A DNA stretch of 56,752 bases, counting the filler, from Sluysia triapertura (Eukaryota): assembly GCA_046118255.1 (NCBI GenBank). It is 4 parts of 4 records of this genome, joined end to end, with 100 filler letters (N's around TTAATTAATTAA, not from the genome) between each part and the next. Parts side by side here need not be neighbours in the genome. Positions count along the whole stretch, not along the records: positions 30,852 to 43,983 come from JBJNIA010057656.1; positions 44,084 to 56,752 come from JBJNIA010091012.1; 2 more parts are not named here. One strand, 5' to 3'. Of this stretch, positions 26,059 to 56,752 are shown piece by piece (position 1 is the stretch's first letter; every line of letters starts with the position of its first letter). Under the pieces are notes generated by a model. It did not search any database and was not told where the DNA came from. It saw only the letters and a program-made list of their open reading frames with translations. A program made the translations under genes and the position numbers.

Positions 26059-26140
26059 CTTTAATTTTAAATTATAAAAATTAATTAACTAATTTTTACG
26101 TTATTTACGTCGACGTGCTTCGCAATACTTCATCATTATA
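26059..26140. repeat. Second copy of the repeat at 1-90
   Basis: Near identity apart from a short indel and a few substitutions. Confidence 0.85.
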
Positions 26141-30751: not shown

Positions 30752-30851
30752 NNNNNNNNNNNNNNNNNNNNNNNNNNNNNNNNNNNNNNNNNNNNTTAAT
30801 TAATTAANNNNNNNNNNNNNNNNNNNNNNNNNNNNNNNNNNNNNNNNNNNN
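30752..30851. other. Assembly gap with artificial TTAATTAATTAA linker
   Basis: 100-nt N block with central linker. Confidence 0.97.
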
Positions 30852-31653: not shown

Positions 31654-31812
31654 TGTTAGACTTCATAAAATGGACTGACCGGGGATCGAACCCGGGACCA
31701 TCGTCTGCGCAGTCCGACTGCTCTAGCACTGAGCTATCAGCCCCGTCTAACAATTTCATGTTTAATATATTCAATTATACTACTTGGCACTTTTAGGCCT
31801 TTTACCCCAACA
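31654..31812 (-). mobile_element. tRNA-bearing TG...CA element, copy A (159 bp, exact 4-bp TSD AAAC)
   Basis: Minus strand TGTTGGGG...TGTTAGAC-[tRNA-like 31671-31743]-TTTT...GTCTAACA; aaac on both flanks. Confidence 0.9.
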
Positions 31813-32339
31813 AAACATCTTTCTCTAAGCATTATACTAAAAGTAAAAAAATTGTTTCAATGACTTGTAATTTTTTTAATTTAATTAATTGTGTGACAAA
31901 CATCCTCTCTATTATGTTATTTAACATCTATGTATTAAAATTTGATAATGCATTTGTTGTTTATTTCTATTTTATTGTCAAGTTTTATTTTGATTATTAC
32001 GTAAAAGTCAATTTAATCATTAAATGTAAAATAAAAAAATCGTAAAATAAAACCGCATTACATTTTAACCGAGTCTTTAGTGCAAGGTAAACTTAAAATT
32101 AACAATATTAATTATACATTACGTAAATCATTACCAAACTAACCACAAACATTGGCTTAAAAATAAAATTTTAGTAAGATTTCTGAAGATTTTGTAAGAT
32201 TCAATCAATGTTTGATACTACTGTTTTGAAGCAGTTTCCTTACAGCATAAGTACTAATTGTTACAATAAGTTTCTTTTTTGTAGAAGAAATTCATGTTTT
32301 TTATAAGGGTAAATTTCAACATTTATACACTTTAGAAAA

Positions 32340-34074
32340 AATTCCACCATATCTACACAATCAAAATAATGAAATTCAAGAGGTGATAATCACGCAACAA
32401 CAACACATTAGGCAAAAAGGTAATAAGCACGCAATAATCATACCACCTCCTAATTATCATCCTGGGTTGTCAAAATCTCAGAAGCATAATAGACGTCGCC
32501 GTCAAATAAGACGTCTCCATAAAAAGGCAAAACTATATAAAAAAGATAAAATAATCAATCCTTTTCTTAAAACGAAACGTACTTAAGCTTTTTATTATTC
32601 CTAAAATAAGTAGATTATTTTAATTAAGAAATAAAATAGAAAAATAAACTAACAATTAAATTATTCTATATATTTTTTTATGTACTCTTTTTATTTTCTT
32701 AAAATATATACTATTTTGTTCAGATCGAGAAATGACTCAGCCTCATGCAAAATTATCAACAACATTTCTTCTTTCTATAATGGTATTGACGGCTTCTGTG
32801 GTCAGAATGACACACCTGCTATTTTCTTTAACTTTAAAACAACCCCCAATACTTTAAAATGTGAACTTGATGAACCATTTATAACCCACCTGTTTCACGT
32901 GAACAAAGTAGACGCCCCATTCGTCTTAAATACACTACAAGGATATCCCACTAATGATAGACCCATCTTAAGAGCAGCAGCAAAGGAGAATTTTAGGGTC
33001 TCTCTATTTGTTGATTTCGTTCCTCTACAAATACGAGTACAAAGTTTCTCATCTTTGTACATCACTAAGGCCTCAGATAAATGTAAGATTTATGTCGAGT
33101 TGCATTCTACATTCGCAGTCTTATTTGCGCTGGAAGAGCAGCAATTAGATATAAGAAATCACCCTATATTATATGATTCAGACAAAGAAAATATCTATAA
33201 ATGGGAAGAATGTGTAACTTTTACACACACGCCTCACATCTCTATATCGAATAAATCTAGTTTAATGTTTATATCAGTGCAATTAGCCTTAGATTTTAAA
33301 GACATACATCAAGTTATAAGAGCTTGCTTGATGAATTATCACCAGGCTTTCCATTCTACTGAGACTATCCGTCCTAGGATGAGGATCAAAAATTTTTTAT
33401 CCATAGATCATAAATTGCGGGAGGATGACGTAAAGGACGCATAGGACATAGATGAAATAAGAAAGTTCTGGCTAATGTCATACGATAAGATTTTAGTTTC
33501 TTTTTGCCCTGATATAATTATAAGAACCTTCAGAATTCCTTACGGTTGGTTAAGGGGTATAGTCAACTTAACCTGTACCAATCAAGTCTGTCATACTTCT
33601 GCGAATCCTGTAAGTAGAACTCGAAGAGTTTTACAATTATTATATTCATTTACACCGCGTTCTTTTAATTGCGAACAATTGGAACGTGATTCCTACCACA
33701 GTTGGTTATAAATAAAAATCAATGTCTAGTACCCTGTTCTTCTTCTCTATAAACATACTACAAAATCTTTCTTCAAACACGATCTGCACACACGACAGTC
33801 ACATTACATTTAAATATGCCACATCAATACCCCATGAAAATATCAGACATAAACAGGCAGAATCTGAAGATGACGTCAGAACTATCAAAAGGCGCAAATC
33901 AAATTCAGTAGATCTTGATGACAGCGACTGCGAGTCCATCCAATCCGATTTCCAACACGTTTTTGGAAACCATGGGAACATATTAGAAGATGAATATTTT
34001 GATTGTATGGATATTATCGACCTGACGAATTAATGATAACAAAATGGGGACCGATTTTTTTGATCGGGGAGTAG
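32340..34074 (+). mobile_element. 3' end of a Ty3/Gypsy-like LTR retrotransposon: basic pol tail, extra ORF, PPT
   Basis: Tail PPPNYHPGLSKSQKHNRRRRQIRR matches the integrase tail at 40340-40480; PPT ggggac...ggggagtag directly precedes TGTTGTG. Confidence 0.75.
32724..34033 (+). pseudogene. Extra ORF (~440 aa) of unknown function in the Gypsy-like element
   Basis: Follows acceptor ttttgttcAG; two in-frame stops and a frameshift; homologous to 39070-40244 (minus). Confidence 0.7.
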
Positions 34075-35098
34075 TGTTGTGTATGTATATTTGATAATCA
34101 TTTATTATTATGTGTTTGTGTATTAGTTTTAATTATTGATTATTTTAACGATTATTAATAACAATTATTATCTCAGAATTTTTGGAATTATTTAATTATC
34201 CTTTATCTTAATGTAAGTAAAAATTTACTATTTAATAAATATATATTATAAAATAAAATATTAAAATTAACCTTTAACTTAACATAAAAATTTACCATTT
34301 AAATAAAATATTATAAAATAACTTAAAATATTAAAACTATTGTTTTAAATTGGCCTCAAGGTCATTTAAAACTATATATAAATGCAAAAGTTTCTACACA
34401 GCATACACAGTTTTTCGGTTTTTCAGTTTTTTATAACAAGCTTTTCACAGTCAACTGACCTACTGTTTGGACACAATTTTTGAATTTTGAAGTACTCTCT
34501 CGTCGGACAATTTTTGACTATTTCTCATTCGTATTAGAATAAGTTTTTGTTAATTTATTTTATATAAGATTGATGCACTTGTGTATCGTACGTAACATAC
34601 AACTTAAAATCTATTTAACAATAATTCGGAATCCCATAACGATTCCCATGCAAAATACGTTTTTCTTTTAAAAAATTTTACATAAGATAAAGGACTAACT
34701 TTATTATATTTATTATATTATTTTATATTTATTATATTTTGTATAAATTTTTGGTTAATAAAACTTACAAAATATACGACTTGTTATTTGATATTCATTA
34801 AATTCTATAGATTTTGTCAGAATTTGATTCTGACCAAGAAAAATACATTAATTACGAATCCCTTTATAGGATTCTACAAAAAATATTATCTAAATTGCTT
34901 ACTTGAAATTATTTGTATAAAATACCTACCTCCAGAGGTTGACTTATTAAACACTCAGATTTGTGTTAAATTATTTCATTAACCTTTTTAATCGAAATCC
35001 AACGGTTGGGCATAGCAGGTAAGTCCAGTACGTTGGTGAACTCACAGTTTTAACTTAAACTTTTATTCTATTTACTTAACTTTATTTCGCTCACAATA
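34075..35098 (+). mobile_element. Probable 3' LTR (TGTTGTG...CACAATA) interrupted by an insertion at 34536-35069
   Basis: Starts at the PPT; TATA-like ctatatataaa near 34372; end is a near inverted repeat of the start. Confidence 0.55.
34536..35069 (-). mobile_element. AGAATAA...TTATTCT element, complete copy 4 (534 bp)
   Basis: 7-bp terminal inverted repeat, ATT on both flanks; core motif at 34995-35045; internal dyads gaatccct-ttat-agggattc and tcagaat-ttg-attctga. Confidence 0.75.
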
Positions 35099-35279
35099 GT
35101 TTAGTTTATTATAACAGTTTATGTGTTGAAGATTTTTTTTATTTTGAGTCTTGTAATTTGTGTGATATGAGTTGAAGTTGTGCAATGTCAAGAGTATTAG
35201 CGAATGACTTTTATATAAATATGTAACTGTACGTGGGAATACAAGTACAGTATATGACAGAGAGACCACAAGAATGGCA

Positions 35280-35918
35280 CTGGATATTGATAATTTTCAG
35301 CAAGAATGACAGTTGCTACACCATTCTGAACCCTCTAACTACCTGATCCTACTTGCACTTTACATCAGTAATGTTGTATCTACCCATACATCACTAACAA
35401 TATACCCAGTACCACAAAATTACAGGTATCGACCAATATCCTCCACAGATTGGACCAACTGATTTCGACCCTATATATGTGATGCTGCATTACAATACAA
35501 ACGAAATCCTAAACTAAGAAACCTTATCACGCCTGACATCCAAACAACCAGGTAGTTCATATACAATATCGTGGCCCAACAGATCAACCCATCTTCGAAA
35601 ATCAAACCTAAACAACCACCTCCTTCAATCCAATCCCTATACAACAAACTCCAAAACACTAGTGACAACCCGATAGATAAAATATTCCAATCCATATATG
35701 ATGTTATCCAACAGATTAAGCCACCCAAATTCCCAAACATTATGGCCCAACACAAAAGAGGCTTGCAACGCGAATCATTACAACCCAGCTTGGATAAGAT
35801 CTTCGCTAAAATCCAAGCCAAAGCATTCCATATAATTACTGGAATAGCCAACTTACCTATCAATCCCATACCAGAGGAAATCTGCCAGTACTACAGTACC
35901 ACCGTTCGACTCACTTAA
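35280..35918 (+). pseudogene. C/A-rich decayed coding-like segment, possibly retroelement-derived
   Basis: 115-aa Pro/Gln/Lys-rich ORF with composition like the nearby retroelement relics; no diagnostic motif. Confidence 0.25.
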
Positions 35919-36299
35919 AGTCACTCAGCTTCCAGTATTTCTATTTATCACACAAAAGTAATAATCATTCATCTTTAACTTGGGATCAGCGAATAATTTT
36001 CTTTTTATGTACGACAAATTATATTTGAATGAATTGATATAAGCTTCAAATAATTTAATATGATGGAACGAAATCTAGATACTTGAAATGATATTAGTTT
36101 TGTTTTTATAAAACAATTTAAAATTTTTATGAATTATGACTCTGGTTCAAATAAGTTCAACCTTTCATACTAGTTTTTAAGTCCCATTGGACGAAGTCAA
36201 GCTTTTCAGATATAAATTTCTGATGATTCATTCATTCGATGAAAATAATTATCGATAAAACGAATATATAACAAAAATAAACGAAAAATCTTTATTGCG

Positions 36300-37090
36300 C
36301 ACTACTTAATTATCCAATCATACTTCTTCACTCTGTGATTCATTTTTGATAACTTTCAAATTATTGTTTAATATTTGATGCAGTTTTGAATTTAGATTTA
36401 GGTTGTCGAGCTTGGCCTCTGCGTGCTAATATTGTCATACTCAAATGAGTTAGATATTATGTCTGTGTAGTGAATCGTGCATTTCTCTTAACATTCTTAA
36501 ACACGATTGTATGATAACATGATAACTCATTTTGTTGACTTGCAAAGAATGTTTCTAATACCAAATTACGTTCTCGATCGAATAAACTAATTAGTTGAAT
36601 GGATTCTTGGCATGGAAGTATATTCTGAAAATCGCATTTATTTCTGACAATCTTATTGAGAATTGATTGTAAATTATCATAATAAATTCTATAATCTGAA
36701 TCCCGTTGCATTTCTTCACAATACATTTTATATATCTACAAATCTGGGTATGATCGATTTTCATTAATTGATTTTCACGTTCAAAAACACTTCTAGTAAT
36801 ATCTGAAACGGGTATTTCACTTATTTCAATGTGCAAACCTTTTTCATACGATGCAATAGGTGCAAAATTACCAATTGGAATATGAATATAAGGATAAGAT
36901 ACTAAATTGGTTTGTAATACTGATATATCAAAATTAAGTACACCCTCGAAACTGAACTAATTAATTGTGCTACGATACGATTTATTGAATTATACGTTGG
37001 TGTGGTTGCTTCAGCGAATTTATTACATATTTTAAACATAGCTTCGACTCTATTAAAAATGATTGGCACCACACGTACATAAAAAAACAA
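36300..37090 (-). pseudogene. Interrupted intronless ORF of unknown function
   Basis: Three colinear ORF pieces; weak resemblance (FK...RF...LTHL) to the 21-kb ORF. Confidence 0.3.
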
Positions 37091-37419
37091 AAGAATAAAA
37101 AGAAAGGTTGATGATAAAGATAAAGAATAATAATGATAAAAATAACATAATTATTATATGTTTTAAAATAATGATATTGTTGATGTTAATATGAAAGTTA
37201 ATATGTTGTAATCGTGGCAATTATATTATACGACAATAATCTTAATAATTATTATATATTTTGATTAGATCTGTAATAACAATAGCTATAGTTCATGATG
37301 ATTATGTACAATGGTTATGTTTGTTTTTTGAATGAGTCAAGTAGTTTGATTAATGTTCTATGTATGTATGCAATGTTTTTATGTGATGAAGCATGGATAT
37401 TTTGATTTGATTTCCATAC

Positions 37420-39030
37420 ACCTCACCATTCTCAAATGTTGCAAGCGCTCATCACCATGTCAAAACCAAATAACATTCGAGAATTTAAATGGTATCGATC
37501 CCACTGGTCAACTGCTAGCCCTACTTTTTAGTAGAATCCTGGTCAACCAAAAGGTCTCGACTGCCTGGAAGAACTACAACACTGTACTGATAATCAAGCC
37601 AATAAATATGACTTGGAGCAAGACGTCGCTTCATGGAGACCTTCAGCTATAGTGGACTGCAGCTACAGAGTCTTTGCTAAGATCTTGAATGACCGGTTAC
37701 TGGCATGGGTCAAAAGTGCAACCTCATCAGTACACACCAAGCTGCTCTTCTTCATTCAGATGGATGCACAGAGCACAACTTCCTACTCCACCCACTTAGA
37801 GAAATAGTGGAGTCGATAAATCACAGAAAATCGCTCAAAATCGAATTACACAGTCTTCCTCGACTTAGTTCAGTGCCGCACAATCTGATAAGGCATACAC
37901 TCTCAAGTATGGGACTCTAACACCAAACCCCGAACATCCTGAAGGACCTATACCAAGACAGCAGTACCACTACTTACAAACCCGTACCGATCATGTATGG
38001 AGTGAAACAAGGATTTCCATTATCCATTAAACTATTCTGTCTGTCAATAGACTATCAGTTTCGCCAGTTCACTGATAATGACTACATCAAAATAACTGAC
38101 GACCTGAAATTTCCTCCATACCTGGCACATACTGACGACATAGCCCTCATCGGCACTACCTTCAATAGACTACAACAAATTGTGAACGAAATTGTCCGGC
38201 CTACGAAATGCTTCTACTACAACATTCCCGACTCGAGTTATTCACCACTAATCGAAATTACTCCGATTCCCTGTGTCACCAACGTGATGTGTCAGAACGT
38301 GATGTGTGCGTTAAGACTATTCAATACTCATACACCGATGATACGCACACTGGCACATCGGGAAGTTATACGGATAGCCAGAAGCCGGATGAATGGAGAT
38401 TGTGTGGATCTGACCCAAGCTCTTACGTGGCTCAATGGAAGTCCTACTGATAAACGCGCTAGGTTGCAAACATGGTGGTTGAAAATCTGAATTTCTATTA
38501 AGAACTTGAAACGAAAATACGGATCTCTGTTTCATTCATCTGCTCTGACAACTACAATGTCCAACTATCACTGAGTCGGACATACTTGGCGACAACCGAA
38601 TCATCATTAACCACAAAGTCGGCACTTGCAATACGAGCTGATCAGCACTTGCAATACCAAGTGCCAGGGTATCTATGTCGACTCTCTCATGCAGTACCCA
38701 CTTTCCAACCAATCCCTGTCACTTGAACCGGAAAATAATGCATGGATGTTTATGATCAAGGCCCGGAACAGTATCATTAGTCTTAATTTCAGTCCACGGA
38801 ACATACGTCTCCATCTGCCAGTATCATGTCGATGGTGTGGCTTCTGTTAGACTTCGTAAAATGGACTGACCGGGGATCGAACCCGGGACCATCGTCTATG
38901 CTCTACAACTGAGCTATCAGCCCCGTCTAACAATTTCATTTTTATTAAATTCAATTTTACCAAATGGCACTTTTAAGCCTTTTACCCCAATATTTCCCTT
39001 TCTGAAAGATTTGTCCATAAATCGTAAAAG
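37420..39030 (+). mobile_element. Decayed R2/NeSL/Utopia-like (RLE-type) non-LTR retrotransposon
   Basis: AWKNYNTVLIIKP, SWRPSAI..CSYRVFAKILNDRL, DGCTEHNFLL, SVPHNLI, GVKQGFPLS..LF, LAHTDDIALI, WMFMIKARN, CRWCG; zinc knuckle interrupted by tRNA element copy B. Confidence 0.9.
38845..38992 (-). mobile_element. tRNA-bearing TG...CA element, copy B (anticodon arm partly deleted)
   Basis: Aligns with copy A; flanks cttc/tttc. Confidence 0.9.
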
Positions 39031-39069
39031 ATAAAAATAAAGTGTTAATTAAAAACGTTAAATCACTGT

Positions 39070-41140
39070 AATGTCTTAGTCTGAATAATCAGAAGAACAA
39101 TAATCGATCGGTAGATAATCAAGTGGAGTAAACTAAGGTATACATTGTGTAGCGGTGTTGAAAACAGGTTTCCATTTCTTTAACTGCGAATGGAGAGTGG
39201 TGAATTATGATGAATTTCATGTTGGGTATGTGACTGATTTGACGTCGAAGGTCGCGCTTTTGGTTGTTGTAGCTTTATGAAATCAAGCGTTGCTGGTTGA
39301 TTGGTGGCAAGTATAACTGGCCGATCAGCGTGAGATAACAATAGAGTAGACACAGACTCAGAAATAGAAGTAAAAAGAGATGGTGGTGGACATTACAACT
39401 AGAGATAAAGGTCGGATGAAAGATTAGATATAAACTGAATACAGATAGGGGAAGAGTAGTTTCCAAGTCTGCCGAGATGAAGCAGATTGTCATTCTTAGT
39501 GAAAGAGATTAGATTGTGATTAGTCATGTTAATCACATCTCGTAACCACCAAAAGGAAGTTGAAACGTGTCGATCATGAGTCGTGGATTCAATGACACAA
39601 GGATTTTGTTATGTAAGAAGATAAGAAAGTACGAGCGGACGGAATCTATATCTTTGTATTCCGTAAGATTAACGCCACTAATACTTTGGATGTCGCGCGA
39701 GAAATTCTTTATGCGACATCACGGAAGAATCTTAGTTTCATGTAAGGCACGTGATATGGGACTTATCAAAGAAATCAAAAGCATGTTGGAATGCTGCAAA
39801 ACGTCGTCAAATTGGTATAATAAGTCCTGCTGTGCCAACGCCCAAGATTTTGTTGACAGAAAAGATGGAAAAGTATCAGGGTGCAACGGGAGTAACAAAG
39901 CTATTGTTGTCGGATAATCTAAAGCCTTAATCAGAACCTCACAAGTTATGGCGAAATATGTAAAGTGTAGAATGGAAGAACTCTAATTTCGCAACAACAA
40001 TGGGTAATTATTTACAATTAGCGTTACTTATACGACCCCTCGTGCTACAACATATAAAGAATCCAAATTATCAGGGTGTTGGTCAAACCTCAGAGGAAAA
40101 ACATGAGTTTTGAATCGACAAGGAAAAATGTGAGTTGCGATATCGCCTTTCAACTTATTATCTGTGGAGTGGAAGTCAGAAAAAAGGCAGGGGTTATTTT
40201 TTCAAAACGGAAACAGTCAATAGATTTTCGCCTGAGTAGACATTCTAAAATAAAACAAGGTACAAGTATAATGGAAAAAAAGTAAATTCGTAAGATTATT
40301 CTTTTAATCATTATTTATAATAAATAATACAATTTTTGGAATACCTTTCTTTTTAAGAAAATGATTACTATGTAGTTTGGTATTAAGAGCGTCTCGTGAA
40401 TTGTAGAATCGTCTCAATTGTGGTCTACGACGATTCCTTTTCTGACTTAGTGAGTCCGAGTGGATAGTTCGGCTGAGGTACGTACATTTTGGAAAATGAG
40501 TTTGTACTCTGATTGACACATCTAACGTCATAACTTTTTTTACAAGAGAATGAATGAGGGTGGTTTATCGCGACCTTTCGTTTTTGGTATAACTATTGGA
40601 ATTGATTTATGTACCTTTCTATTTCGCAAGTTCTATTCCTCACTTGGTGGCGCTCTACATCAATTTACATGTACTACGAAAGTTTTGGTAGAATCCTTAA
40701 CGAATAAATTAGTATTCATAATTTTCATTACACTTCATATGGTCCTTTAAAAAGTTTACGTAATTTTGGTGAATGTCCTGGTCATGATAAGGGATATCTA
40801 TTAATACTTTATCACAAACTGGAAAAATGTGTTACTTAGCTTTTTTATCATATGTATCCTTATAATACTCTGAATAATATTTAATTTGGAGACCTGCTCG
40901 TTTCAAAGCATCTTGTAAATTTTCTCGCATTATTGTCACATTTTCCGGAATATTCGTGTATTATGTGTGGTGCCCAACCTAAATCTGCGGAAGTGTTTGA
41001 ATGTTTACCGTACATTAAATAAAAAGGGGCGAAATTAGTGGTTGGGTGAACTGAACTTGCATAAGCGAATAAAGATGGAGCAATGTATAAATCCGAATCG
41101 GATTATCTGTCATTAATATAACTTCAATAGTCGCCAACGA
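39070..41140 (-). mobile_element. Decayed Ty3/Gypsy: integrase C-terminus plus downstream extra ORF
   Basis: DLYIAPSLFAYASSVHPTTNFAPFYLMYGK, KGPYEV (GPY/F motif), basic tail RNRRRPQLRR; extra ORF begins after ttttattttAG at 40244. Confidence 0.8.
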
Positions 41141-42178
41141 CAATATAAATTTTCGTGTATCCATTTAGCAATGATCATGTTTACATACTAGTTTCTTCAA
41201 TAGCCATGTACGTATAAATATTCATAACTTTATCTGATGCTATATACATTTTATTACACTATAAATATATATATATTTTAATTAGTTCACAATCTTAAAT
41301 TTTGATTAGTATTAACTTATTACATTTTTATTACACTAATATAAACGCATCAATACAAATTAAAATAAAGTCATTGAAATATGTCGTCAATTATTCTAAA
41401 GGCTTCGTTGCTTGTACTCAAGCATGAATCTCAGCTACATTCAAATTCACTGTACAATTAAAATTACTTTACAATTTTTTAAATTTGTGAAAAAACCAAA
41501 TTAAGACCATTTAGCATACTATTTTAACTCGCAATATAAATACCTATAAATACAATATTTTAATTTCAACGATTAGCTTTTTAGTATGTTTGTAGTATAA
41601 TTTAAAACGTACCAGAAAAAATAACATCAGGTGTTTCTTAACCCCGTCCTATACAAATAATAAATTTAAAATTACTAAAGAGTTCACGTTAAACTTAAAG
41701 GTTAGATTTTTCCTAAGTTTTTAATTAATCATTGAAAATTGTCATAAAAATTTTAATTTATTGACAATACATACAAAAATTTTATAATAGGTAACAGAAA
41801 ATAAAAATAAGACATAAACATAGTATCTTAGAATAGACAATAAAAATGTTGAAAAACCTTCCACTTCCTTAGATAAGAATACGCACATACAACTTTCATA
41901 TATAGGATTAAAATATAAAGTAAATGAAAGTGATCAAATCTTTGTTGAAAACACAAAGTATTCTTAATTCCAGCTCAAGCATATAGATTTCCATAATTAC
42001 ACAATTTAAAGTTATGCGAGGGAATTCAATATTGATTTTTTAAAATATTAATCGATAAACAAATCTTTTACTGAAAAACCTACTAGAACTTAATATAATT
42101 AACATCACAAACGAAAATAAACCTAACACATTTAAATAAAAATACAATTATAACGGCACACTTGCTAATAATGTTTGC

Positions 42179-42487
42179 TCAAAAACCATATTCTTTCAAA
42201 ATATTTTCTCGTTCCGACGGAGGAGGTAAAGCAGGCACAAGACCTTTAGCTTCCCTTTCTTTTGTTATCATTTTCTACACTAACCAATAAATGAAAAAGT
42301 AAAGATTAACCCAAAATTTGCGGCATTCAAAAACATTCTTTTGATAATTTTTACATTTGGAATTATCTGAACCATATTTCTCGGAACACCGTAACGACAA
42401 TAGTTTCTCCTAGCTAACATCATTTTTAGATTATATTACCTCATAACAAGGGTCTTCATCTTTCCATATTTGTTTCTGTTTAGACAT
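42179..42487 (-). CDS. CHCHD7: CHCHD7/COX23-like mitochondrial twin-CX9C protein, 80 aa, 3 exons (42440-42487, 42311-42409, 42179-42274)
   Basis: Spliced product MSKQKQIWKDEDPCYEEKLLSLRCSEKYGSDNSKCKNYQKNVFECRKFWKMITKEREAKGLVPALPPPSERENILKEYGF: CX9C-X10-CX9C, CRKFW and G..P..P...ER..IL tail; GT-AG introns of 30 and 36 nt. Confidence 0.92.
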
Positions 42488-42759
42488 AAAATTATTTTTA
42501 CATTTAAAAAATAATGTACAATTTTAAATACTTTAAATACGAAATAAAGAACATCATTTATCACATTTTGTTAATATACAAATGAATAAAAATTAAGTCT
42601 TATATGCATGGCCTGAAAATCAAATCTTATTTTAAACAAATTTTGTTATTTAAAAAATAAGTAATTTTTTGTAGGCATAATATTGTTTAATGAATTAATT
42701 TAAATTTAATTAATTAATTTAATTTTATCTGTTGATGGACAAATAATTAAGTTATACAT

Positions 42760-43210
42760 TTTTCAAAATTTGAAATTTTTCGCGAGTCGCAATTAAATAC
42801 GTATTAAAAAATTATGCAAAAAAATCCAGATTATAAATTACATCCGTAGCAGGAGTGATCCAAATTGTTTCCTCCAGAGCACAATATCAACTGTTCGTTG
42901 CAATTGCAATGAAAGTGTACAAATTCAAAATCGGTCTGGGGTCGGTCGATCACTGATTTTTATGTTGCGTCACTGTTTATGTTCACTGTTTATGAGTCAT
43001 CATTCTTAACTTGGGCGGAAATGAAATTTGTTACAACGTTTCACTTAGTCTTCCATATTTGTTGTCAGTAATTTAAAAGACATTTTGAAACACATAATAA
43101 CATATAATAACACAAATATGAAAAAGGAACTCGGGTACATTTATCGAGGACCACAAATAATCTTTCAAAGAGCCCCATGTTGCTCGCGAGCCGTGGTTTG
43201 GCCAACCCTG
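42760..43210 (+). mobile_element. Internally deleted hAT (Charlie-like) element
   Basis: Right end gctcgcgagccgtggtttggccaaccctg followed by ttatacat (also at 42752-42759); SNLKRHFETH BED-finger-like fragment near 43070; left TIR not recognisable. Confidence 0.55.
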
Positions 43211-43769
43211 TTATACATCAACAAACTTCTTACATTAAAATAAAAATAATAAATTTAATTGAAAAATAATTGAATTCTAATGTGAAGTGTTTAATGTTCT
43301 TATTCTCAAACAGATCATTCCACAAACATTCGAAATTCACTTCAAGATCCTTCTCTCTCATAGTGTTTGGATTCACAAGTGTGTGTTAGGAAATTAGGAA
43401 GAAATACATAGAGCTATAAAAGGAAGAGAGAACTGGTATAAATTGATGGATTTAACATTATAAACACTGTCGAAAAAAAATCATGAAAATAAAATCATAA
43501 AAATTATAACAGCTAAAGAATACCTTGACATTCCAAAGAACTATGTAAGGTGTCGAGACTTTTTGGAGGCTTGAAATGTACCTGAAAAAACTTTGAAGGT
43601 ATTAGAATACCTTTGAGCTTGTGGACCTTGAGATCATCTGAGACTTTATCAACCTTTAACTATTCTTGAAACTTTGATAAAATCTTTGAGTAATATTATA
43701 AAGTGTATATAATCTTTAAAATATTTGAGAAATACAATCATTGTTCAAAATAATAAAGATAAGTTTAAC

Positions 43770-43983
43770 ATAGTAATAATTAACATGAAGAAGTAGAAAA
43801 AGGAACCAGAGAGGTGAAAACATCTAGAGCCTTCCGAACGACTTATAAACTAGTAAAAAACTTTAGAACCTTAATAAACCCTTTAAACATAGAATAGGAT
43901 TAAGTCAAATAGATTAATTAATTAAAAATCTTAATTAACTTAATTAAGAAAAAGTATGTTTTTGTGAATAACTTTTGAATGCG
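43770..43983 (+). repeat. Partial copy of the LTR-like repeat at 45607-45996
   Basis: Shared gaagtaga.aaaggaa, actttagaacct.aataa, aattaacttaatta.gaaaaagta.gtttttgtgaataac. Confidence 0.8.
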
Positions 43984-44083
43984 NNNNNNNNNNNNNNNNN
44001 NNNNNNNNNNNNNNNNNNNNNNNNNNNTTAATTAATTAANNNNNNNNNNNNNNNNNNNNNNNNNNNNNNNNNNNNNNNNNNNN
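43984..44083. other. Assembly gap with artificial TTAATTAATTAA linker
   Basis: 100-nt N block with central linker. Confidence 0.97.
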
Positions 44084-44724
44084 TAGTTTGTGTATATGTG
44101 GAGCGTTTTTAAGCGATGAATTGTGATGAACTATATGTGATGAATTATGATGAATATTATATGACGAGTTCCCAACACTTAACAAATTTGAATTATAAGC
44201 TTACGTTGATTCCGTTATATGGAATCAGAAAAATTAGATTTTACTAACTAGAATTAACTTCTAGTATGGGAAAACTTCTAGACAATTAATTTTAAGATTT
44301 TGAAGCTACAATAATAAAAATTGAACAAAATTTGAACACTTTATTAGCAAAATTAACGTATATAATAGATTAAAGAATAATTAATATAATAGTAAGTATC
44401 GAATTAGTTTGTTCAAAATCGTAATAAGATTTTATAAAATATTTTTCTCTAGATCTTTACAAGATCTAAATAAAAAGACTATTTTAAGTATATTTTACTT
44501 ATGATATTCAGTGAATATCTTGCCTTATAAAAAATTAAGCTAACGTGATCCTAAACAAATTGAATGATCCGTTCAATGTCTTGATTAATAACTGGTAACA
44601 AAATCAACTCTCGAACAAAATTAAGATTTATAAACAAATATAATTGACTCTTGAACAAAAAATTAAGATTTATAAACAAACTTTTTTGTGTGAGGTTTGT
44701 TACATTTTCATGAAGGTATTTATT

Positions 44725-44832
44725 TTTGTTTTAATCTGACATTGGTCAGATTAAAACAAACAAAATAATATTTATCAGATTAAAACAAACAAAATAATAT
44801 TTATCAGATTAAAACAAACAAAATAATATTTA
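44725..44832. repeat. Perfect 16-bp hairpin whose right arm begins a 3 x 29-bp tandem array
   Basis: tttgttttaatctgac-attg-gtcagattaaaacaaa; unit tcagattaaaacaaacaaaataatattta x3. Confidence 0.9.
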
Positions 44833-45606
44833 AAATAATAATTCATTAATAATTAAAATTCGTTTATTTTGTTTAGGATCGCGTTAAAATCAAAATAATT
44901 TTAAAATTTTAAATAATATTAACGTACTTTTAGTTTTATAAAATTCCAGAAATAATCTTTTAACAGTAAAAATCAACAATTGAATTAAAAAATCAATAAT
45001 AATGAATAATAATGTAAATAATTTAAACAAATCATCAATACTTATGTTCGCACAATAGTTATAAATAGATTTATTTTTCACACAATAGTTATCAACAGAT
45101 TTAGCACACAATAGTTATGAATAGATTTATTACCTTACACATGGATATACAGTACTTATTGATGCATCAACTTAAATTGAATATAAATCTAATCAAATAT
45201 AAAACTTATCTTCAATAATAACAGCACGCCGCACATCAATTTAATAACATCTATAGAATGACATTTTAATGGACATTAATTTTATATATACTTTTACTAC
45301 ATATGTTCATTATGATACATAGAAATTTAAGGTTTTAATGAAGAAAATTATCTATGTTGACATATTTTTCACTATTTCGGTATTCATAATACTGAAACGT
45401 ATAATTTTTTATTATGTGTGTTTCACATTCATAGGCAAACGTCAAACTCAAAGTTCTTGATTAAAATTGATTTTTAAACCATTTTAATTAAATTAATTAA
45501 TAAATGTACGTATAAATTTTTTTGTAAAACTATAGAAAATAGTGATTCTTTAATCTTCATTTTGCGACACCCTTACTTTATCATCCGACGATTCCAACTT
45601 AATCAT

Positions 45607-45996
45607 TGTTATTAATATTAAAGAAGTAGAGAAAGGAATCACAATAGTAAAGGCGAAAGTATGTAGAACACCCTGAGCAACTTATAAAGTATTAAATAAC
45701 TTTAGAACCTGAATAAGACCTTTAAACGTAAAGCAAATGCAAGTTTAAAAATAGAATAATTAATTACAATCTCAATTAACTTAATTAGGAAAAAGTACGT
45801 TTTTGTGAATAACGTTTGGATAAGCAATGTTACGTCAAAATGGTAACTAAGCATGTGTTTCTTTTAAAAAGAGACACAGATAAAAGCCTTGTTTGATTGC
45901 GTTTATGTAAGGAAAGTCTTAATATTTAGCAAAGTCAAGTTTTAATTAGAGAATGTTGAATTTTTTAATCAAAACGAGTAAGTTTCATCAATAACA
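45607..45996 (+). mobile_element. Solo-LTR-like repeat (TGTTATT...AATAACA)
   Basis: TG/CA ends with a 7-bp perfect inverted repeat; second partial copy at 43770; no TSD seen. Confidence 0.55.
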
Positions 45997-47222
45997 AACA
46001 AAGTTTTAAATGAGAAACCGATTTATAAATATCAGATTCGGACATATGAAATAAAAAAATAATGAAATAATAAAATGAAATAATAATTAATTACCTATCA
46101 ATTTCTGAAATTAAAAAATTAATTACAAAACAAATAAGTGGAACTAACCACTTATCCTGAAATCATAAAATAAATACAAATTACTTTAAAAAATAAATAA
46201 AAATCAAATAAAAACTAACTGGATGTCACCATTTTCCTAAATAAAAATTTAAATAAATAAATTAAATAACTTACGGTACACAAGCTGTAATTGGTTGATT
46301 TAATATACAAATGTAAATAGAATTCTAAAAGTTGAGTTATTACTACTTATCGTTGAAATTGTCCTTTTGATTTAAATTTACACTGATTTAATTGGCGCTA
46401 TTCGTCAATAAATCCATTATTCTTTTGTTCAATTGGTGCTCTTCGTTAAATTGATAATCGCTCAACTGGTATACTAGTGCTCGATTAATACAATGAACGT
46501 CGGAGAATAAGATATGGTCACAAAAGATCAAGACTATTACCATATTAATTGTATCAACTAAAGATTTTCGTAAGTTTGTGTTTTTAAGTTCTGTCTCTGT
46601 TAATAAACATAAAATACACTTAAAATATATCATTATACTCTTTAGTTTTCAGTTAAAGACAATTTACTTTATAAAATTATTAATTTATTTTAGAATTTAG
46701 AAATTCTAATCATAAATTGTTATTGTACAATATAGATCGGTATGCTAATAGATCTTTTGAAGAATTTAATATTACAAAACAGAACTTTATTATTACTCGG
46801 TATCTTTATTTTAATTTATTTTTATTTAATAAATCTTTGGAGACTTTAAATTTCTTTTGTATTATAATGCTGAGATTGTCTAAATAATCAGTAGAGTTGT
46901 TACGAATAAGAGAGAAAATATAAAAGAGAAATTAATTTTGAGAAAACTTAAAAAGGCTTTCAATTAAGTCGATACTATTATTGTGTCCTAATACGATAAT
47001 TGCAGATAATATTGATCAAGTTATCTGAGTTAAGTCATTTTGTAGAGATAACTTTTTAGTAAACGTTACAGAGATAAATGTTATCACAAATTTAACATAG
47101 TTACTTTGCGCATTCGTTTATATGGAAAGTCCATAACTATTCTATATTTAGATATTTTTAGGTACTGTAAAGTTAGTGCAGTAAAATATTATATGCTTTT
47201 ATTTTACTTTCAATAATATTTA

Positions 47223-47385
47223 TGTTGAAAAACAGGTCTAAAGTGCCATTTAGAATAATAATAGTATAATTGACTTAATTTGTTAGACGTGCTGATAGCT
47301 TATTGATCAGAGCATCGAACTGTACAACTATGAGGTAAGAGGTTCTGGATTCAATCCCGGTCTGTCCATTTAATGAAGTCTAATA
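47223..47385 (+). mobile_element. tRNA-bearing TG...CA element, copy C (diverged)
   Basis: tgttg...aaagtgcca...tgttagacgtgctgatagct...ccggtctgtccatttaatgaagtctaata; flanks ttta/tttg. Confidence 0.85.
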
Positions 47386-49920
47386 TTTGCCGTTCTCAAA
47401 ACATGTTCTTATAACGAAATATTTCTGACTTAGCAATTAAAAAATTAGCAGAAAATAAATTATATAAATAGAAAGAATACAATAAATTTCTTAATTTCAA
47501 TTGGTTATTACATTAATCCAGTTTATTAATAGATCTATAGGATTTCTTACAGGAATTATTTATTATTGTGTTATATTATTAATCAAAGATAAACTTTAAC
47601 ATATTAAGATAAAAATGTTGCATAAATAAATGTTGAACTTTATTATTTCATTTATAAATTTAAATTACATTTTGTACGTGTTTTGCTAAAAATCTCACAT
47701 ATTTGTAATGCACAATTTAATACACAAATATGTAAATAATTCAATGTAATTGATTTTAAATGAAATATATCGATAGTAAAACCAATTTAATAATGTTCTA
47801 ATTTTAACTATAAATTATTGATACTATTTTTAGCTTCTAAGTATATTACTAATACAGCTATTTATACGACACACAATTATTTTTTCTATCTTTACATTTT
47901 CATTGGTTGGTTAATTTATTAAATGAATAAAAACAAAGTGTACATTGTTGAAAAAATGATTTCTTGTTTTAATAAATTTTAGAATAGTTGCCAATGAAAG
48001 ACAATTTATTTAAAATGTTCCTGCCTCCGATTCAATACCAGTTTCTTTTATTATTTAATTTAGTATATATATTCCTTATCAGTGCTCATTGGTGGACTAG
48101 TTATAGTATATTGATTGTCATTGTTTTTCCATTCCTTGTGATCCAGCTAATATTGGTATTTCATCTACATTCAATGTTATTAAGACCTTTAATGGATGAT
48201 ATATATATTAAAGAAAAGCAGGTATAACAATATTTATTCTAGTGTGTCATATCGTTCTAAATTTAATTGTAAAGTGTTTTTGTATTATGTTTGTATTGTT
48301 TTAATATAATAATTACTTTGCATTACTATGACTTAATTATGGCAGATATTTGAAAATATGTTAATTTCTAAGATCCATGCGTTTACAGCTTGGTTGAATT
48401 ATCGATTGCATCTAAATGATAAAAATAAATTAAAAGATTGTTTAGTAGATTTATTCAATGGGCATAATTGGCAATATTTAACAGAGACTTTTATAGGTGC
48501 ATCTTTTGATAAAGTTGGTAATTTTACTGGGTAAGAGAAATTATTATATGAAATTTAAAGGATTTATTTAGAATTTCACAAATTCAAAAAATTGATAGAA
48601 TAAGTTGGATTGTTAAGGAATTGAAAGAATGGTAATATTTATATAACAAATATAAATTAAACTAATTGTAAAATCAATAAAATAAAAGTGAAGATTGTAA
48701 ATATAAATTTGATGAATGAAATGTGGCTTTTTAGTTTGGGTTATATTTCTTGAAATATGTGCAAATATTCAACTTTTATTACATTTCATGACATGTAAAA
48801 CGAGACAACAATGAGACAAAATAGTGATAATGGTATGCAATAGTATTTAAATAATTTTCATTAGGTAAATAGTAATTTACTAAAGATTTTATTAAATGTT
48901 TGCTTTTTGTACTTATTTTAATATTTTAAGAATCCAAAATTAATCAGTGCCAACTCCAGCGTGGAGATATCGTCCCGGTAGAGATATTTTAGTGCTACAT
49001 TCCACATATATAGATTAAGTCTAATTTTCTACAAATTAACGTATACTTTTTATTATTTCACAATAAACTACAAAATGAAGGTTAACAAAAATAACGAATA
49101 ATAAATAAGCATAAATGAATTTTTGATTATTTAATATTTAAATCTAAGTATAAATTTGCGTAACAAAATGCGCTTTTTTATGGAAACAATGTTTTCCAAA
49201 ATGGATTTTTTTTCCAGATGTTTCATTTTTGGTTCCCATTGTAAAATCCGATTAATCTTTTTTGTTATATAGTTGACTTTAAATAATTTTGTAAGTTTAG
49301 ATTTCGAAAAAGATCTGATATAAAATAACAGCTTCTGAATTTAATTTTAAAACAAATCTAAAACATCTAAGTAATATTAAAATAAAATTACTGATTATAC
49401 AATTATAATAAAATTTAAATATAATTTCTAAGTAAATCAAATAAACAAAATTATAACAAAAATGAAATTAAAAAAAATTTTAGAAATTTTGAAATAATCA
49501 AAAAGAAACGCCAAGAAATAAAAATGTAGTAGAAGAAACGTAGATCTAAGTTTGTTGTACTTAATTATCAAGTCAAAAATATTGTGGATAGAACGCAAAT
49601 AATTTTGTGATAATGAAGATATAAAGACCTATAAGATGAATGTATATGTAAATTATAGTATGGCCAAACAAATAAAGCTTACCTCATAGCGCACGATTTT
49701 ATTTTAGTTATCTAAATTTTAAACGCCTTTACTTATTCTATGTAAACGATTCTTTTAATGAAAATCACCAAACCTGAAAACTGAAAAGATAAAATCATAA
49801 TAAGATAAGATTTTTAGGCAGCATACAATTTTTAATAAAAGTTGATTCAACATAAAATTTCATAATTGAAAAATTGGATATTAAAATGATAGTCCAATTT
49901 ATGTACATTATTTAACAAAC

Positions 49921-50050
49921 TGTTGGGGGTAAAGGCCTAAAGTGCCATTTAGTATAACTGAATATAATAATCTAGGGCTGATAGCTCAATGAGTAGAGCA
50001 TCGAACTGCGCAGCGAGGTTCCGGGTCAGTCAATTTTATGGAATCTAACA
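49921..50050 (+). mobile_element. tRNA-bearing TG...CA element, copy D (internal deletions)
   Basis: tgttgggggtaaaggcctaaagtgcca...gggctgatagctca...atctaaca; flanks aaac/aaat. Confidence 0.85.
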
Positions 50051-50960
50051 AAATGCTATGTGTTAATCAGCATTTTATTACTGAAGTATTATTTACATTT
50101 ATGTTTATTTTATGGATGAAACACAATCTCCGACCTGAAAGTATTAAAAATTAAAGATATCATTGATAAGAAATATTACTCTTTAAGAGTATTAAAAAGT
50201 AATTCTAAATTTCGTCACGAAGTGATTGTCTATTTGAGAATGTGGTGAAAATTAGTTACATTTATGAAATAGAACAGTGACAGTTGTCCCTCATTTGACT
50301 TTGAAGGCTTGGAGCACTTTTACAAAATTCAAGAAAGATATGATGAACCAATATTAAAATATAAAACCAATTCAAATGTAAAACTAATTATATAGGTTTA
50401 TTAAAAATAATTTCATAGTTAATTATGTAAATTTGATAAAGTATACAAGATTATTATAATGTTATCTTGGTAAAGATTTAATGCTCTACATATCATTCAA
50501 CCATTTATCATGACTGTATTTCGTCATTAACACAACTTATATATACATAAAAACTTTATTTCAAGCGCATCATAACATATCTCAAATATGCCATCACAAA
50601 ACACCTCATCAAATCTGGTATCAAATCTGAACTATTAAAATTATGTATTTGTCAATCAAAATTAAATCTTTACTAAATTATATTAACATTACTAGGTTTC
50701 AACTTCTATAAATGATATAATCACGATTGTCATCATCTATGTTCTCTGTAAACTGTGAGCGTGTTTAAATACTTTGTTTAAATATCGGTTTTGAGAAAGA
50801 GATCCTTATTTCTTTAGCAACGGAAAAAATATTTAAGTATGGTTTTATGATTGTTGAATCCGTGATAATCGAGCATGGTGTGGTAAACAAAGAATTTATA
50901 TATTTTATTAAATAGATACAAAAAGAAAGAAGTTGTTTAAATGAACTAGAAAACTATATA

Positions 50961-51439
50961 CAGTGGTGGCCAAATTATTAGACTAAAGACCATTTTTGTG
51001 ATAAAATTTAACATTTTTCAAGGACACTATGAAACTATACATACCATTTACCGAAGTTTTCACGGAAAATGTAAAATATTGGAAAATAACTACTTTCTCC
51101 AAAAATTTCTGGTGAAAGTAAAATAATAGATAAAATTGCTGAGATCCAAAACATTCGGAAATTTTATTCATGAAGAATGATAACACAATTTACTACAAAT
51201 ATGTACAAACTGTTGTATCAGTACTTTTTTTGCCCTCCTTTGTTATCCAATAATTTCCTGATCCTTAAAGGCATGCCATGGAAATACTTGGGTCACAAGT
51301 CTTTGATCTCGTCATCGTGATGCCATACATTTATCAGCGTTTCAATAAGTTCCGTCCTAGTGAAAGAGCTTCCAGGGTAGCAAATATTAAGAAAACCAAA
51401 GAAAAACATATTTTTCTTATTTTAGTCTAATAATTTGGC
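50961..51439 (-). mobile_element. Internally deleted Tc1-like element
   Basis: TA-CAGTGGTGGCCAAATTATTAGACTAAA with inverted copy tttagtctaataatttggc at 51421-51439; minus-strand ELIETLINVWHHD...GMPLRIRKLLDNKGGQKKY* transposase C-terminus. Confidence 0.85.
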
Positions 51440-52445
51440 TATAAGGTTAACCCTCGTACTATTATTAGAATTTTAAAAAAGTTTAAAGAAGTGGAATTTT
51501 GTTCAAATGATCTACAAATCCAGTAATGTGAGAAAAAACTGGATCTGTTCCGGTTGCTATTGATATAACATTTCTTAAGCTTAATACAGAATTTCATTTA
51601 CTACTTTTTTAATAATAGTAATGCTTATTTTTTAAGTTACGTTTATTTTTTAAATTCAGTTTCAAACTTACGACCCAATCTCAGTTACTAGTCGTGATTT
51701 TATTCGGACGCATTATAAAAATTAAATTCATCTTTTTAACGATATTAACATTTTCAACAATATTAGTATTTATGTTCATATTTGTAATGATTTTGATTTT
51801 TTTACTATGTTTTAAATAACAGTAATGTTTATGTTTTAAATTATCCTAATAAACTCCACTGTTCGAATCCACCATAAGTAACTTATGTCCCGAATGCTTC
51901 ACGCAACGAGAATTACTCTATTAGTTATATTACTAGAAATTGGTATGCTCAGGGAACATAGGTTATAATGTATCGATTATAATATTTTAATAAGGTTTTC
52001 TATAAATGATTTAAAAATAAAGATTTCAGTAATCAGAGTAATAATCAATTAATAAAGAATTTAATAGCCAATATAAATAAGAATAAAATTACATACTCAA
52101 AAACAATTACCACTAAAGTATACGACGGGAAATTTTATGTGCTTGTGTATGAATGGCATTAAGTGTACTAACGATTTTGAAACTAAAGATGCTTAAAGAT
52201 ATTTAAGATAAAGCAATATTTTATAGCTTAATGATCCTGTATAAAACTGTATTGTAAAAAATTACAATATTCGATAGTAGAATTCAAAATCATGATGATA
52301 ATTTATAATTTCCTGGGTTGCTGGAATATTAAATAACTCTTGAGAACTATGAAAATTCGAAGTGAATATATTTGTTTAAGTGCACAGAATGATGTCTAGA
52401 ACTGTGTAAAATCTGAAGTTGTATGAAATGTAATTTTATAACCTT

Positions 52446-52982
52446 AGAATAAATTAAATTAAAATGAGATTAGTCGACCTAAAATTCTAAGTTTTGATAG
52501 CTAACGTTCTCCTACATATTATCGGAATTGAAGGTTAATTGAAGTATGTATATTAAGATGGATTTGTTTGAATGTAATAGAATTGATAAAAGCTGAGGTT
52601 TGAAATATGTGAAATGAAATGGTGATTGGATATGGCTTGTGTTTTAAGATTCGCTAACTGTGGTGAGCTTAACTTCACAATGACATATTTTACCTTCAAG
52701 GCATAACATGCAAAACATATCAGCAATCAAAATTCAACAATTTTTAAACAACAATTAAATTAAAATATTTACAACAACCTAAATTCAAAATAATAGCAGT
52801 TTTCTACTTCTTCATTCCTTCATATACTTCCAAATTTTCTCACTATTTCACGTAAATAAATTTTTATTCTTTATAATTGTTCACTTTCATTGTTAACACT
52901 TTTTATGTTCAACAATATTATCTAATTGCTCGTGGTATTGTTATTTTTATTCTAAGTATTATTTCGCTTTTCAACTTATTCT
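52446..52982. repeat. AGAATAA...TTATTCT-bounded unit with G/T-rich left half and C/A-rich right half
   Basis: Same 7-bp ends and similar length (537 bp) to 34536-35069; skew flips near 52670; internal homology not established. Confidence 0.4.
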
Positions 52983-53737
52983 AACAGTTTTTATGTCCAT
53001 CAGTTATGTATTATTTGATAATTCACAATACTACAAGTCATAAGTTCATTACAATTCTTTATTATTACTTTCTTTTTCATCCAATCAATTACTTAGTACT
53101 TATTATTTCATAATCTACTACATCAAAAGCAAAAATTCTTTATTATTACAATTAATTTAATTTTATTTTCATTCAAATAGAAACTTACATAATTTTTCAT
53201 CCATTTGAAGTAGTAGTAGTTAAAAAGGTACTAAAAAAACGTAATAATTACTTCTTAGCAGTCAATAAAAATTGATCAATTAATCGATTGTTTTAAAAAT
53301 TTTTAACTATTTATGGCTGTAACGTTTTATAAATGTTAAATGTAAAGCACGTTTAATTTTTAATACGCTTATTCAATTATTTCACATTGAATTGCACTTT
53401 AGAAGATATTCTTAATCTCACATGAAACTATGAAACAAATAAGTTTATTTTCTTGATATAATGTTTACAAAATTTTGATAAATTTGTTAACAAATTAAAA
53501 AAACATTCAATTTAAAACTCTCAAAGTGGGAAAGTTTGTTTAAAAATCTATTATTTTTTTAATACTTAGCTGTTACAAAGAACAATTCAATTTATTTGTG
53601 TATCTGTTGTTATAACAATGCACGTTTCTCGTTTGGCTATTAAAGAAGTGGAAATCTCGGGCTACGTTCTAGTTAAACTCAAAGAATCTTCCTTTTTTTG
53701 TGTTCATTCGTTACGTAGATTTTGTTTTAGGGTTACT

Positions 53738-53895
53738 TGTTAGATTTCGTAAAATGGACTGACCGGGGATCGAATCCGGGACCATCGTCTGCGCAGTCGA
53801 TGCTCTACCACTGAGCTATCAGCCCTATCTAACAATTTCATTTTTAATATATTCAATTATACTACTTGGCACTTTTTAGGCCTTTTATACCAACA
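53738..53895 (-). mobile_element. tRNA-bearing TG...CA element, copy E (tRNA-like 53755-53825)
   Basis: Close to copy A; core GGGCTGATAGCTCAGTGGTAGAGCATCGACTGCGCAGACGATGGTCCCGGATTCGATCCCCGGTCAGTCCA; no TSD. Confidence 0.9.
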
Positions 53896-53960: not shown

Positions 53961-54660
53961 ATGCTACCTATTATCAATTCCAGAACTAAGAAGCAGATTG
54001 ATTTATTAGAAATTTTAATATGGTATCATAGCGAACTTCAACTTTTAAAAGAACCTAATATACTTCCTAATGTAAAACACTGGCTGAGTTACTTTAACTT
54101 GAAGTATGATTCCCTTAGTAACGTTAAAGTCATAAATCTTAACCTTGACTAACAAGATTTTTTATTGCCAAAGTCAAGAGTAGTATTGTTGATAACGATC
54201 ATCAATAACGATTATCAACGCTTATGTCAAATCCAATTTACGAAAGTGCTAATGAAACAAGTATGATCGATGCATGCTTATCAGCAAATCATATATGCCA
54301 TTTCAACAAACACCATAAAGGTCTATTAAAACAAATACGGAATCCTTAATTACAAACGTACAAGAACCAGTTTATTAATCGAATATAAGTACGGAATTTA
54401 TTCCTATCTGAGTGATATCACAATACGTAAAGCACAGTGTCCTTACCAATCAAATGCTTATGGAGAATGTGCCACTTTTGGAAAATTTTGTACCTTTTAT
54501 CACAATATATTTCAACTTAATGGAGATGACTATGAAGTTCATCAACAAGTCAAAGTCAGTGATCTTCAGAATCTTCCAAAGCACGAAAACACTAAATCTT
54601 GCTCAGATTTCACAACAGAAGTCTATTGCAATATGAGTCTAATAAAAATTAATATAAACT
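53961..54660 (+). pseudogene. Frameshifted intronless ORF with CCCH-type zinc finger
   Basis: Frame not shown in the ORF track reads YLSDITIRKAQCPYQSNAYGECATFGKFCTFYHNIFQL (C-x9-C-x6-C-x3-H). Confidence 0.65.
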
Positions 54661-56481: not shown

Positions 56482-56752
56482 TGTTGGGATTAGTGAAGAA
56501 TAAGGGTTGATATAAGGGTCAAAACTTCGGATAACAGAATAAGTTGAACGTTATTAAAGAACTAAGACGAGGCATTATGATGAAGTGCAATAGTAAAATA
56601 ACTATAGAAAATATTTGAATCAAAGTAAAATAATGAGATATACGAAAAAATAACCCTGTAAAAGGTTTGCTTTGTTAAAACATTAAAGTACATTTGTTAA
56701 TTAACTTAATTAAAATTGGTTTAATTTAATAACTCAATGGAAATGTTTGCTC
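56482..56752 (+). mobile_element. LTR-like repeat homologous to 90-401, truncated by the window end
   Basis: TGTTGGGA start; long alignment with the reverse complement of 140-401. Confidence 0.7.

Follow-up and report, generated by a model that had tools for sequence, protein, structure and literature searches.

Short tRNA-bearing units of Sluysia triapertura as probable Helenus-type long terminal repeats, one of them adjoining a Gypsy remnant

A 56,752-nucleotide stretch of DNA from Sluysia triapertura (assembly GCA_046118255.1), referred to here as the window, was found to carry five copies of a short unit that encloses a tRNA-like core. These units are most probably the long terminal repeats (LTRs), mostly solo, of a Helenus-type (TRIMp3) family, with a tRNA-derived promoter inside the LTR and with insertion likely performed by a Gypsy-type integrase, a reading to which a probability of about 0.83 is assigned. 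Helenus elements have been described by Kojima (2024; PMC10886601) as terminal-repeat retrotransposons of miniature size (TRIMs) with a tRNA-like sequence inside the LTR; those of animals have a target site duplication (TSD) of 4 bp, solo LTRs are common among them and Gypsy elements are thought to act as their helper. This kind of element is already known, and what is new here is a copy (copy 2) that stands directly after a Gypsy integrase remnant, a further reading frame and a purine tract.

The window consists of four pieces separated by 100-base N linkers (17203–17302, 30752–30851 and 43984–44083) and is AT-rich eukaryotic DNA with a G+C content of 26%. Copies 1 and 2 are located on one piece and copies 3–5 on another.

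The five units, their ends and their dispersal

BLAST and a profile search (nhmmer) returned exactly five copies in the window and no sixth, in agreement with the first-pass annotation of this DNA. The five loci given there were right, the figures being the low ends of the units, and copies 1, 2 and 5 are to be read on the minus strand. The copies are 130–163 bp long and share 77–94% pairwise identity (nhmmer). Their positions, with the parts of copy 1, are:

31654–31812, minus strand: copy 1, a 159-bp tRNA-bearing LTR-like unit, putative solo LTR, with a perfect 4-bp TSD and sharp depth edges at both ends
31753–31812, minus strand: leader of copy 1, 60 bp, AT-rich with TATA-like words, putative U3
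31745–31752, minus strand: inner 8-bp arm of copy 1, paired with the unit's final 8 bases and thereby lengthening the acceptor stem
31671–31743, minus strand: tRNA-like core of copy 1 (putative R region), which contains A and B boxes, G3:U70 and A73 and whose anticodon arm is distorted
31654–31670, minus strand: T4 run and 13-bp tail of copy 1 with CA end, putative stop for RNA polymerase III (Pol III) and U5
38845–38992, minus strand: copy 2, 148 bp, with a deletion of the anticodon arm; candidate 3' LTR of the Gypsy remnant
47223–47385, plus strand: copy 3, 163 bp, the most diverged (77–80%), flanks matching at three of four bases
49921–50050, plus strand: copy 4, 130 bp, two internal deletions, flanks matching at three of four bases
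53738–53895, minus strand: copy 5, 158 bp, flanks unmatched (one of four bases), with a paired C-G to T-A change in the inner arm and tail

The layout proposed earlier (leader, core, TTTT and tail) was recovered, with the qualification that the exact TGTTGGGG start is present in only two of the five copies. The ends are fixed and of the TG...CA type, the terminal bases being TG or TA and CA or TA, and the 5' end reads TGTTG in four of five copies. The tRNA-like core begins 54–70 bases into each of the five copies, and the 17-base tail opens with T4 in four of them, copy 3 being devoid of the T4 run. An A box was identified in all five copies (one with a change) and a B box in four; in copy 4 the inner TGTTAGAC arm is absent, as is part of the variable and T arms. 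TATA-like words occur in the leader of four copies and AATAAA in that of copy 2, both of which are weak signals in AT-rich DNA.

The flanks previously reported (aaac/aaac, cttc/tttc, ttta/tttg, aaac/aaat and one unmatched pair) were found as stated, agreeing at 4/4, 3/4, 3/4, 3/4 and 1/4 bases. Tabulation of TSD length for the window copies, as the first-pass annotation had advised, singled out a duplication of 4 bp, with 14 of 20 bases matching (p = 0.0005 versus random pairs from the window); at the other lengths between 2 and 10, only length 3 fell below p 0.2 (p = 0.02). With copy 2 left out the match is 11 of 16 bases (p = 0.003), and a match at three of four bases has a chance rate of 10%. 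The flanks of the five copies share nothing beyond AT-rich chance, so that segmental duplication is ruled out.

A search for public runs that contain this DNA returned a single one, and none recorded as RNA. The dispersal of the family was assessed with that run, possibly from the source sample, whose 6,252,256 contigs were compared with copy 1. A total of 11,414 contigs mapped, with a summed contig depth (which is not a copy number) of 0.4–2.6 million within copy 1 versus 0–112 outside it and edges at 31654 and 31812. The 3' end of the unit is left by 504 contigs into unlike sequence (agreement 0.41), and one contig carries two units in head-to-tail order, separated by exactly 4 bases. The family is present at hundreds of distinct genomic sites, and thousands of copies in the genome are likely, considering the five copies in 56 kb of the window (one per 11 kb). 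Subfamilies are apparent, with 410 contigs having a different anticodon and variable arm (at 31699) and 106 a different leader (at 31756). The leader of copy 2 was seen to resemble the alternative leader of these 106 contigs.

The tRNA-like core and the likeness to Helenus

The Rfam tRNA model scores copies 1, 2 and 5 at 46–48 bits, and ARAGORN calls a tRNA in two of the five copies, with the anticodon GCG in one and an indeterminate anticodon in the other. The acceptor, D and T stems are 90–100% paired, the acceptor stem being broken in copies 3 and 4. Two features claimed for the core were confirmed, namely the alanine identity elements, with both G3:U70 and A73 aligned in all five copies, and the distorted and variable anticodon arm, which is non-canonical in every copy and deleted in copy 2. 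In the portion of the Schmidtea tRNA data consulted (PMC7962491), the D and anticodon arms are similar to those of planarian tRNA-Cys(GCA), while the T arm equals 21 bases of one table row, which bears the label Gln and is marked for isotype disagreement. The core's first seven bases (acceptor stem) have no match in the tables searched (supplement file 2). A search of phage tRNAs gave Lys and Thr labels at ~80% (7 records) and is uninformative on isotype. The Schmidtea row that matches the T arm presumably has an Ala-type body. The isotypes of anticodon and body disagree, as a GCG or indeterminate anticodon is combined with Cys-like D and anticodon arms and an Ala-type T arm. Among the contigs of the run G3 varies by 1.7%, compared with about 1.5–2% for G1 and G2.

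It had been suggested that the unit may express an aminoacylatable tRNA mimic. There is no support for this, as the anticodon arm is Cys-like and broken even though G3:U70 and A73 are present. Alanyl-tRNA synthetase recognizes its substrates by acceptor-stem identity rules, and in vitro alanylation of the core may be possible, although RNA processing would be needed. The most fitting reading of the core is that of a promoter relic rather than a decoding tRNA. The inner 99 bp of the unit contain a perfect 8-bp inverted repeat, in which the inner arm forms with the tail a helix that is stacked on the acceptor stem; one pair of this helix is changed on both sides (copies 4 and 5), which is not beyond what shuffles give (46/500). 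It may be speculated that the inner arm marks where an older LTR of 99 bp began or acts as a shield against RNase P/Z, the 8-bp duplex of leader and tail atop the acceptor stem being one that may protect genomic RNA from tRNA-processing nucleases.

The layout of the units and their 4-bp TSD match the LTRs of animal Helenus elements (PMC10886601), which bears out the earlier suggestion of a tRNA-containing solo LTR or TRIM. According to the consulted part of that description, animal Helenus LTRs are 104–323 bp long and run from TGT through a leader, the A and B boxes, a T run and a short tail to ACA, with some families known from the LTR alone. The leader, the sense tRNA-like segment with A and B boxes, the T run, the short tail, the TG...CA ends and the 4-bp TSD are common to both, as are an LTR length within this range, solo LTRs and a proposed Gypsy helper. 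Disagreement between the isotypes of anticodon and body, as seen here, is reported for most Helenus families (PMC10886601). A 23-base stretch around the B box, compared by eye, is common to copy 1 and Helenus-2_TeGr of a bivalve (PMC10886601). The units differ from Helenus in that the defining form, with two LTRs around a short non-coding interior, and a primer-binding site (PBS) were not seen in the window, one copy is a candidate 3' end of a coding Gypsy remnant, and the inner 8-bp arm pairs with the tail. Table 1 of Kojima (2024) covers six animal phyla and no flatworm. In a literature search with most subscription journals and Repbase outside its scope, Helenus was found to be described only in that paper and nothing closer was met.

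Two further systems are instructive. Cassandra, a 5S-bearing TRIM, similarly has a Pol III promoter in the LTR and a model of transcription from 5' LTR to 3' LTR, but its promoter is derived from 5S rRNA, it belongs to land plants and its transcription has been shown (as described in PMC10886601), whereas that of the present units is proposed. The ta-TRIM elements of taeniid tapeworms, whose Gypsy partner is lennie, are likewise TRIMs with many solo LTRs and mostly 4-bp TSDs (52 of 57); in contrast to the present units, a tRNA-like LTR or Pol III is not mentioned in the portion of the text available, where "polymerase III" has 0 occurrences (PMC4558846).

By analogy with Cassandra, Pol III would start immediately ahead of the tRNA-like core in the 5' LTR of a two-LTR parent, would at times read through the weak T4, cross the PBS and polypurine tract, and stop at the T4 of the 3' LTR. 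The tRNA-like segment would act as R, the repeated region, and reverse transcription by a helper Gypsy, which would give reverse transcriptase and integrase in trans, would restore the 60-bp leader from the 3' LTR. Recombination between the LTRs would then leave solo units that are immobile on their own. Restoration of the leader from the 3' LTR would explain the puzzle raised by the first-pass annotation, namely that a Pol III transcript omits the leader.

Several points weigh against assignment to Helenus. No paired LTR, which the earlier annotation had proposed to look for, was found among the five window copies (nhmmer), and no PBS-like motif was detected beside any copy (11 motifs, 1 mismatch), an absence that would be expected of solo or 3' LTRs. 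The TSD is perfect in only one of five copies, and the flanks of copy 5 are unmatched. Pattern scans gave no relatives outside the Sluysia triapertura genome, the viral scan yielding 45 loci, all phage tRNAs or chance matches, and the metagenome scan a single locus that matches over 19 bases only. Finally, Pol III transcription and read-through of the family are proposed by analogy.

Copy 2 and the adjoining Gypsy remnant

On balance, the arrangement of features around copy 2 suggests that it is the 3' end of a coding Gypsy remnant. The features concerned are:

38993–39003, minus strand: 11-purine tract abutting the 5' end of copy 2, putative polypurine tract
39122–40564, minus strand: decayed, stop-poor frame of 481 codons with one membrane-span-like stretch near its end, putative env-like third open reading frame (ORF3)
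40543–41141, minus strand: broken C-terminal half of a Gypsy-type integrase with a GPY/F module, the 5' part of the element being missing
37350–38844, plus strand: decayed long interspersed element (LINE; reverse transcriptase), which stops at copy 2 (RVT_1, E 0.004)

The order on one strand is integrase, 481-codon frame, 116 bp, purine tract and copy 2. The standard 3' end of a Gypsy element consists of integrase, third frame, short untranslated region, purine tract and LTR. Purine tracts of this type occur at 44 of 112,462 positions (0.04% per position) and abut one of the five copies, copy 2, where the tract lies behind a coding remnant and not in a TRIM interior. The 481-codon frame has 10 stops compared with 28–34 in the other frames, and none of 2000 shuffles was as low, the region having been picked after inspection; no homologue of the frame was found in the searches.

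When used as a query with X at stops, the integrase remnant gave 76 HMMER matches at E ≤ 0.001 (best 1.9e-9). Twenty-four of these, the top-ranked and long ones, were scanned for domains, and 20 carry rve, reverse transcriptase, RNase H or SH3_Tf2-1, with reverse transcriptase or RNase H in 13. The matches are collinear over 41141–40543, across several frame breaks, and the remnant is assigned to a retrotransposon pol because it is collinear with proteins bearing reverse transcriptase or RNase H (P0057, P0063, P0069). Homology ends near 41165 and is followed by AT-rich DNA, the element being 5'-truncated; a matching 5' LTR, PBS, gag and reverse transcriptase were not found, and nhmmer detected no second LTR on the piece. 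Searches of PDB, plasmid and viral sequences with the integrase piece were empty, and an atlas search returned rve/SH3_Tf2-1 only below 0.9, which is a lead only. An apparent aspartic-protease domain after the integrase, an unusual order, was observed in the close relatives P0015 and P0063 (Pfam) and P0069 (by eye).

At its other end copy 2 meets the decayed LINE, which is cut at its zinc knuckle and is the probable insertion target. The G+C content is 44% on the LINE side versus 27% on the other side. Continuation of the LINE frame across copy 2 was considered and rejected, as it fits two residues only, does not agree with a 4-bp duplication, and the G+C content drops at once.

The competing view, which we judge to have somewhat less than an even chance, takes copy 2 for an ordinary solo LTR whose TSD is cttc/tttc and puts its place behind the Gypsy remnant down to coincidence or later rearrangement. 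Its flanks do match at three of four bases, and decay is 16–21% in the upstream frame (a rough stop count, inflated by out-of-frame stretches) versus ~5% in copy 2 relative to copies 1 and 5 outside the leader, so that copy 2 may be younger than the remnant. This difference in decay tells against a common origin of copy 2 and the remnant, as does the fact that copy 2 is a single case with no 5' LTR surviving on the piece. However, given the 10% chance rate, and since the two flanks belong to unrelated elements of different G+C content, the cttc/tttc match may be fortuitous; the view would also leave so rare a purine tract abutting the unit by accident and would require that the Gypsy element lacked a 3' LTR of its own at precisely this point.

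A broader proposal, only slightly short of even odds, is that a coding Gypsy with an env-like third frame shares its tRNA-bearing LTR family-wide with non-coding dwarfs, as opposed to a one-off chimera at copy 2, which would arise through template switching or recombination. With a shared LTR, the autonomous Gypsy would be transcribed by RNA polymerase II (Pol II) from the leader and the TRIM by Pol III from the tRNA boxes. The 2,173-base remnant has 22 runs of at least four T on its sense strand, so Pol III would be unable to transcribe it and Pol II would be needed. A helper that shares the Helenus LTR was deemed unlikely by Kojima (PMC10886601). Copy 2 may point to the Gypsy partner that moves the family.

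Alternative explanations, other features and implications

Three other explanations of the family were weighed. The units could be Ginger-type miniature DNA transposons with a captured tRNA or the head of a short interspersed element (SINE), moved by cut-and-paste, which is improbable. The TGTNR ends and AT-rich 4-bp TSD are Ginger2 traits (PMC2836005, PMC3845634, in the parts available), movement of Ginger1, Ginger2 and Ginger2 miniature transposable elements with inverted repeats (MITEs) by an integrase-type enzyme is a further likeness, and the inner 99 bp do have their perfect 8-bp inverted repeat. The true ends, however, are complementary at only 4/4, 5/8, 6–7/17 and 14–18/50 bases (copies 1, 4 and 5), and a terminal inverted repeat of 4 bp compares poorly with the 40–270 bp and 50–180 bp given in the consulted part of PMC2836005, or the 16 bp of a Ginger2 MITE (PMC3845634, likewise in part). 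Moreover, Ginger elements have no tRNA core and no purine tract in these sources, whereas here such a tract abuts copy 2 and the integrase beside it is collinear with proteins having reverse transcriptase or RNase H. The Ginger-like MITE offered as an option by the first-pass annotation is rejected for its short terminal inverted repeat.

Slightly less probable still is the idea that every copy is a solo LTR from a coding Gypsy family in which a tRNA relic sits in the LTR by chance, with no non-coding TRIM. Coding Gypsy is the sole internal sequence found beside any window copy (copy 2), and other Repbase LTRs also contain tRNA-like sequence (PMC10886601). Against this, a density of one copy per 11 kb is very high when the LTR is short, and the T runs of the remnant, by barring Pol III, would leave the well-kept boxes without use. 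The least credible account, that of a tRNA-derived SINE with unusual ends or of dispersed tRNA genes or pseudogenes whose RNA may be a charged tRNA-Ala mimic, would fit the Rfam scores, the well-paired stems, the constant G3:U70 with the acceptor-stem rules of alanyl-tRNA synthetase and the A and B boxes of a SINE2-like head, but it is contradicted by the 54–70 bases before G1 with their fixed 60-bp leader, the lack of an A-rich or simple-repeat tail, the one TSD length, two sharp ends and unshared flanks, an anticodon arm broken or deleted in every copy and first seven core bases found in none of the Schmidtea table rows searched, in keeping with the earlier statement that the unit is not a classical SINE.

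Apart from the tRNA-bearing units and the elements around copy 2, the following were identified in the window:

2719–3780, plus strand: broken CDK-like kinase without introns, with a tandem triplication of 57 bp at 2985–3158
6116–7087, plus strand: decayed Tc1/mariner-like transposase (Pfam DDE_3, E 0.0045)
7736–7951, plus strand: TBP-like fragment
32251–34033, plus strand: run of long frames (111, 263, 88 and 105 aa) with no Pfam match
36594–36956, minus strand: divergent tubulin C-terminal fragment
54330–54959, plus strand: CCCH zinc-finger frame resembling Unkempt (E 0.0045), separated from copy 5 by 435 bp

Searches with the CDK and tubulin pseudogenes, aimed at placing the host, gave no match, nor did an atlas search with an exon-like frame. 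Another dispersed family, of ~60–95 bp, was also observed, with four copies on both strands that are 78–93% alike (4631–4726, 12114–12209, 23533–23603 and 34986–35072) and that gave no Rfam match. Five further repeats are present in two copies each, 72–91% alike:

14947–15168 and 50967–51196
23709–23829 and 26741–26860
43779–43980 and 45611–45821
139–396 and 56495–56752
1–85 and 26059–26138

As regards the Helenus-type family itself, plain membership extends a little-studied class, and tRNA gene counts can be inflated by LTRs of this kind when there are thousands of them. Should copy 2 be the true 3' LTR of a coding Gypsy element, the questions raised by Kojima (2024) of which autonomous element moves animal Helenus and how such a pair arises become testable in one genome. 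A shared LTR, if true, would for the first time tie an animal Helenus directly to its helper, and would point to an origin through loss of internal sequence from a Gypsy element with a tRNA already present in its LTR.

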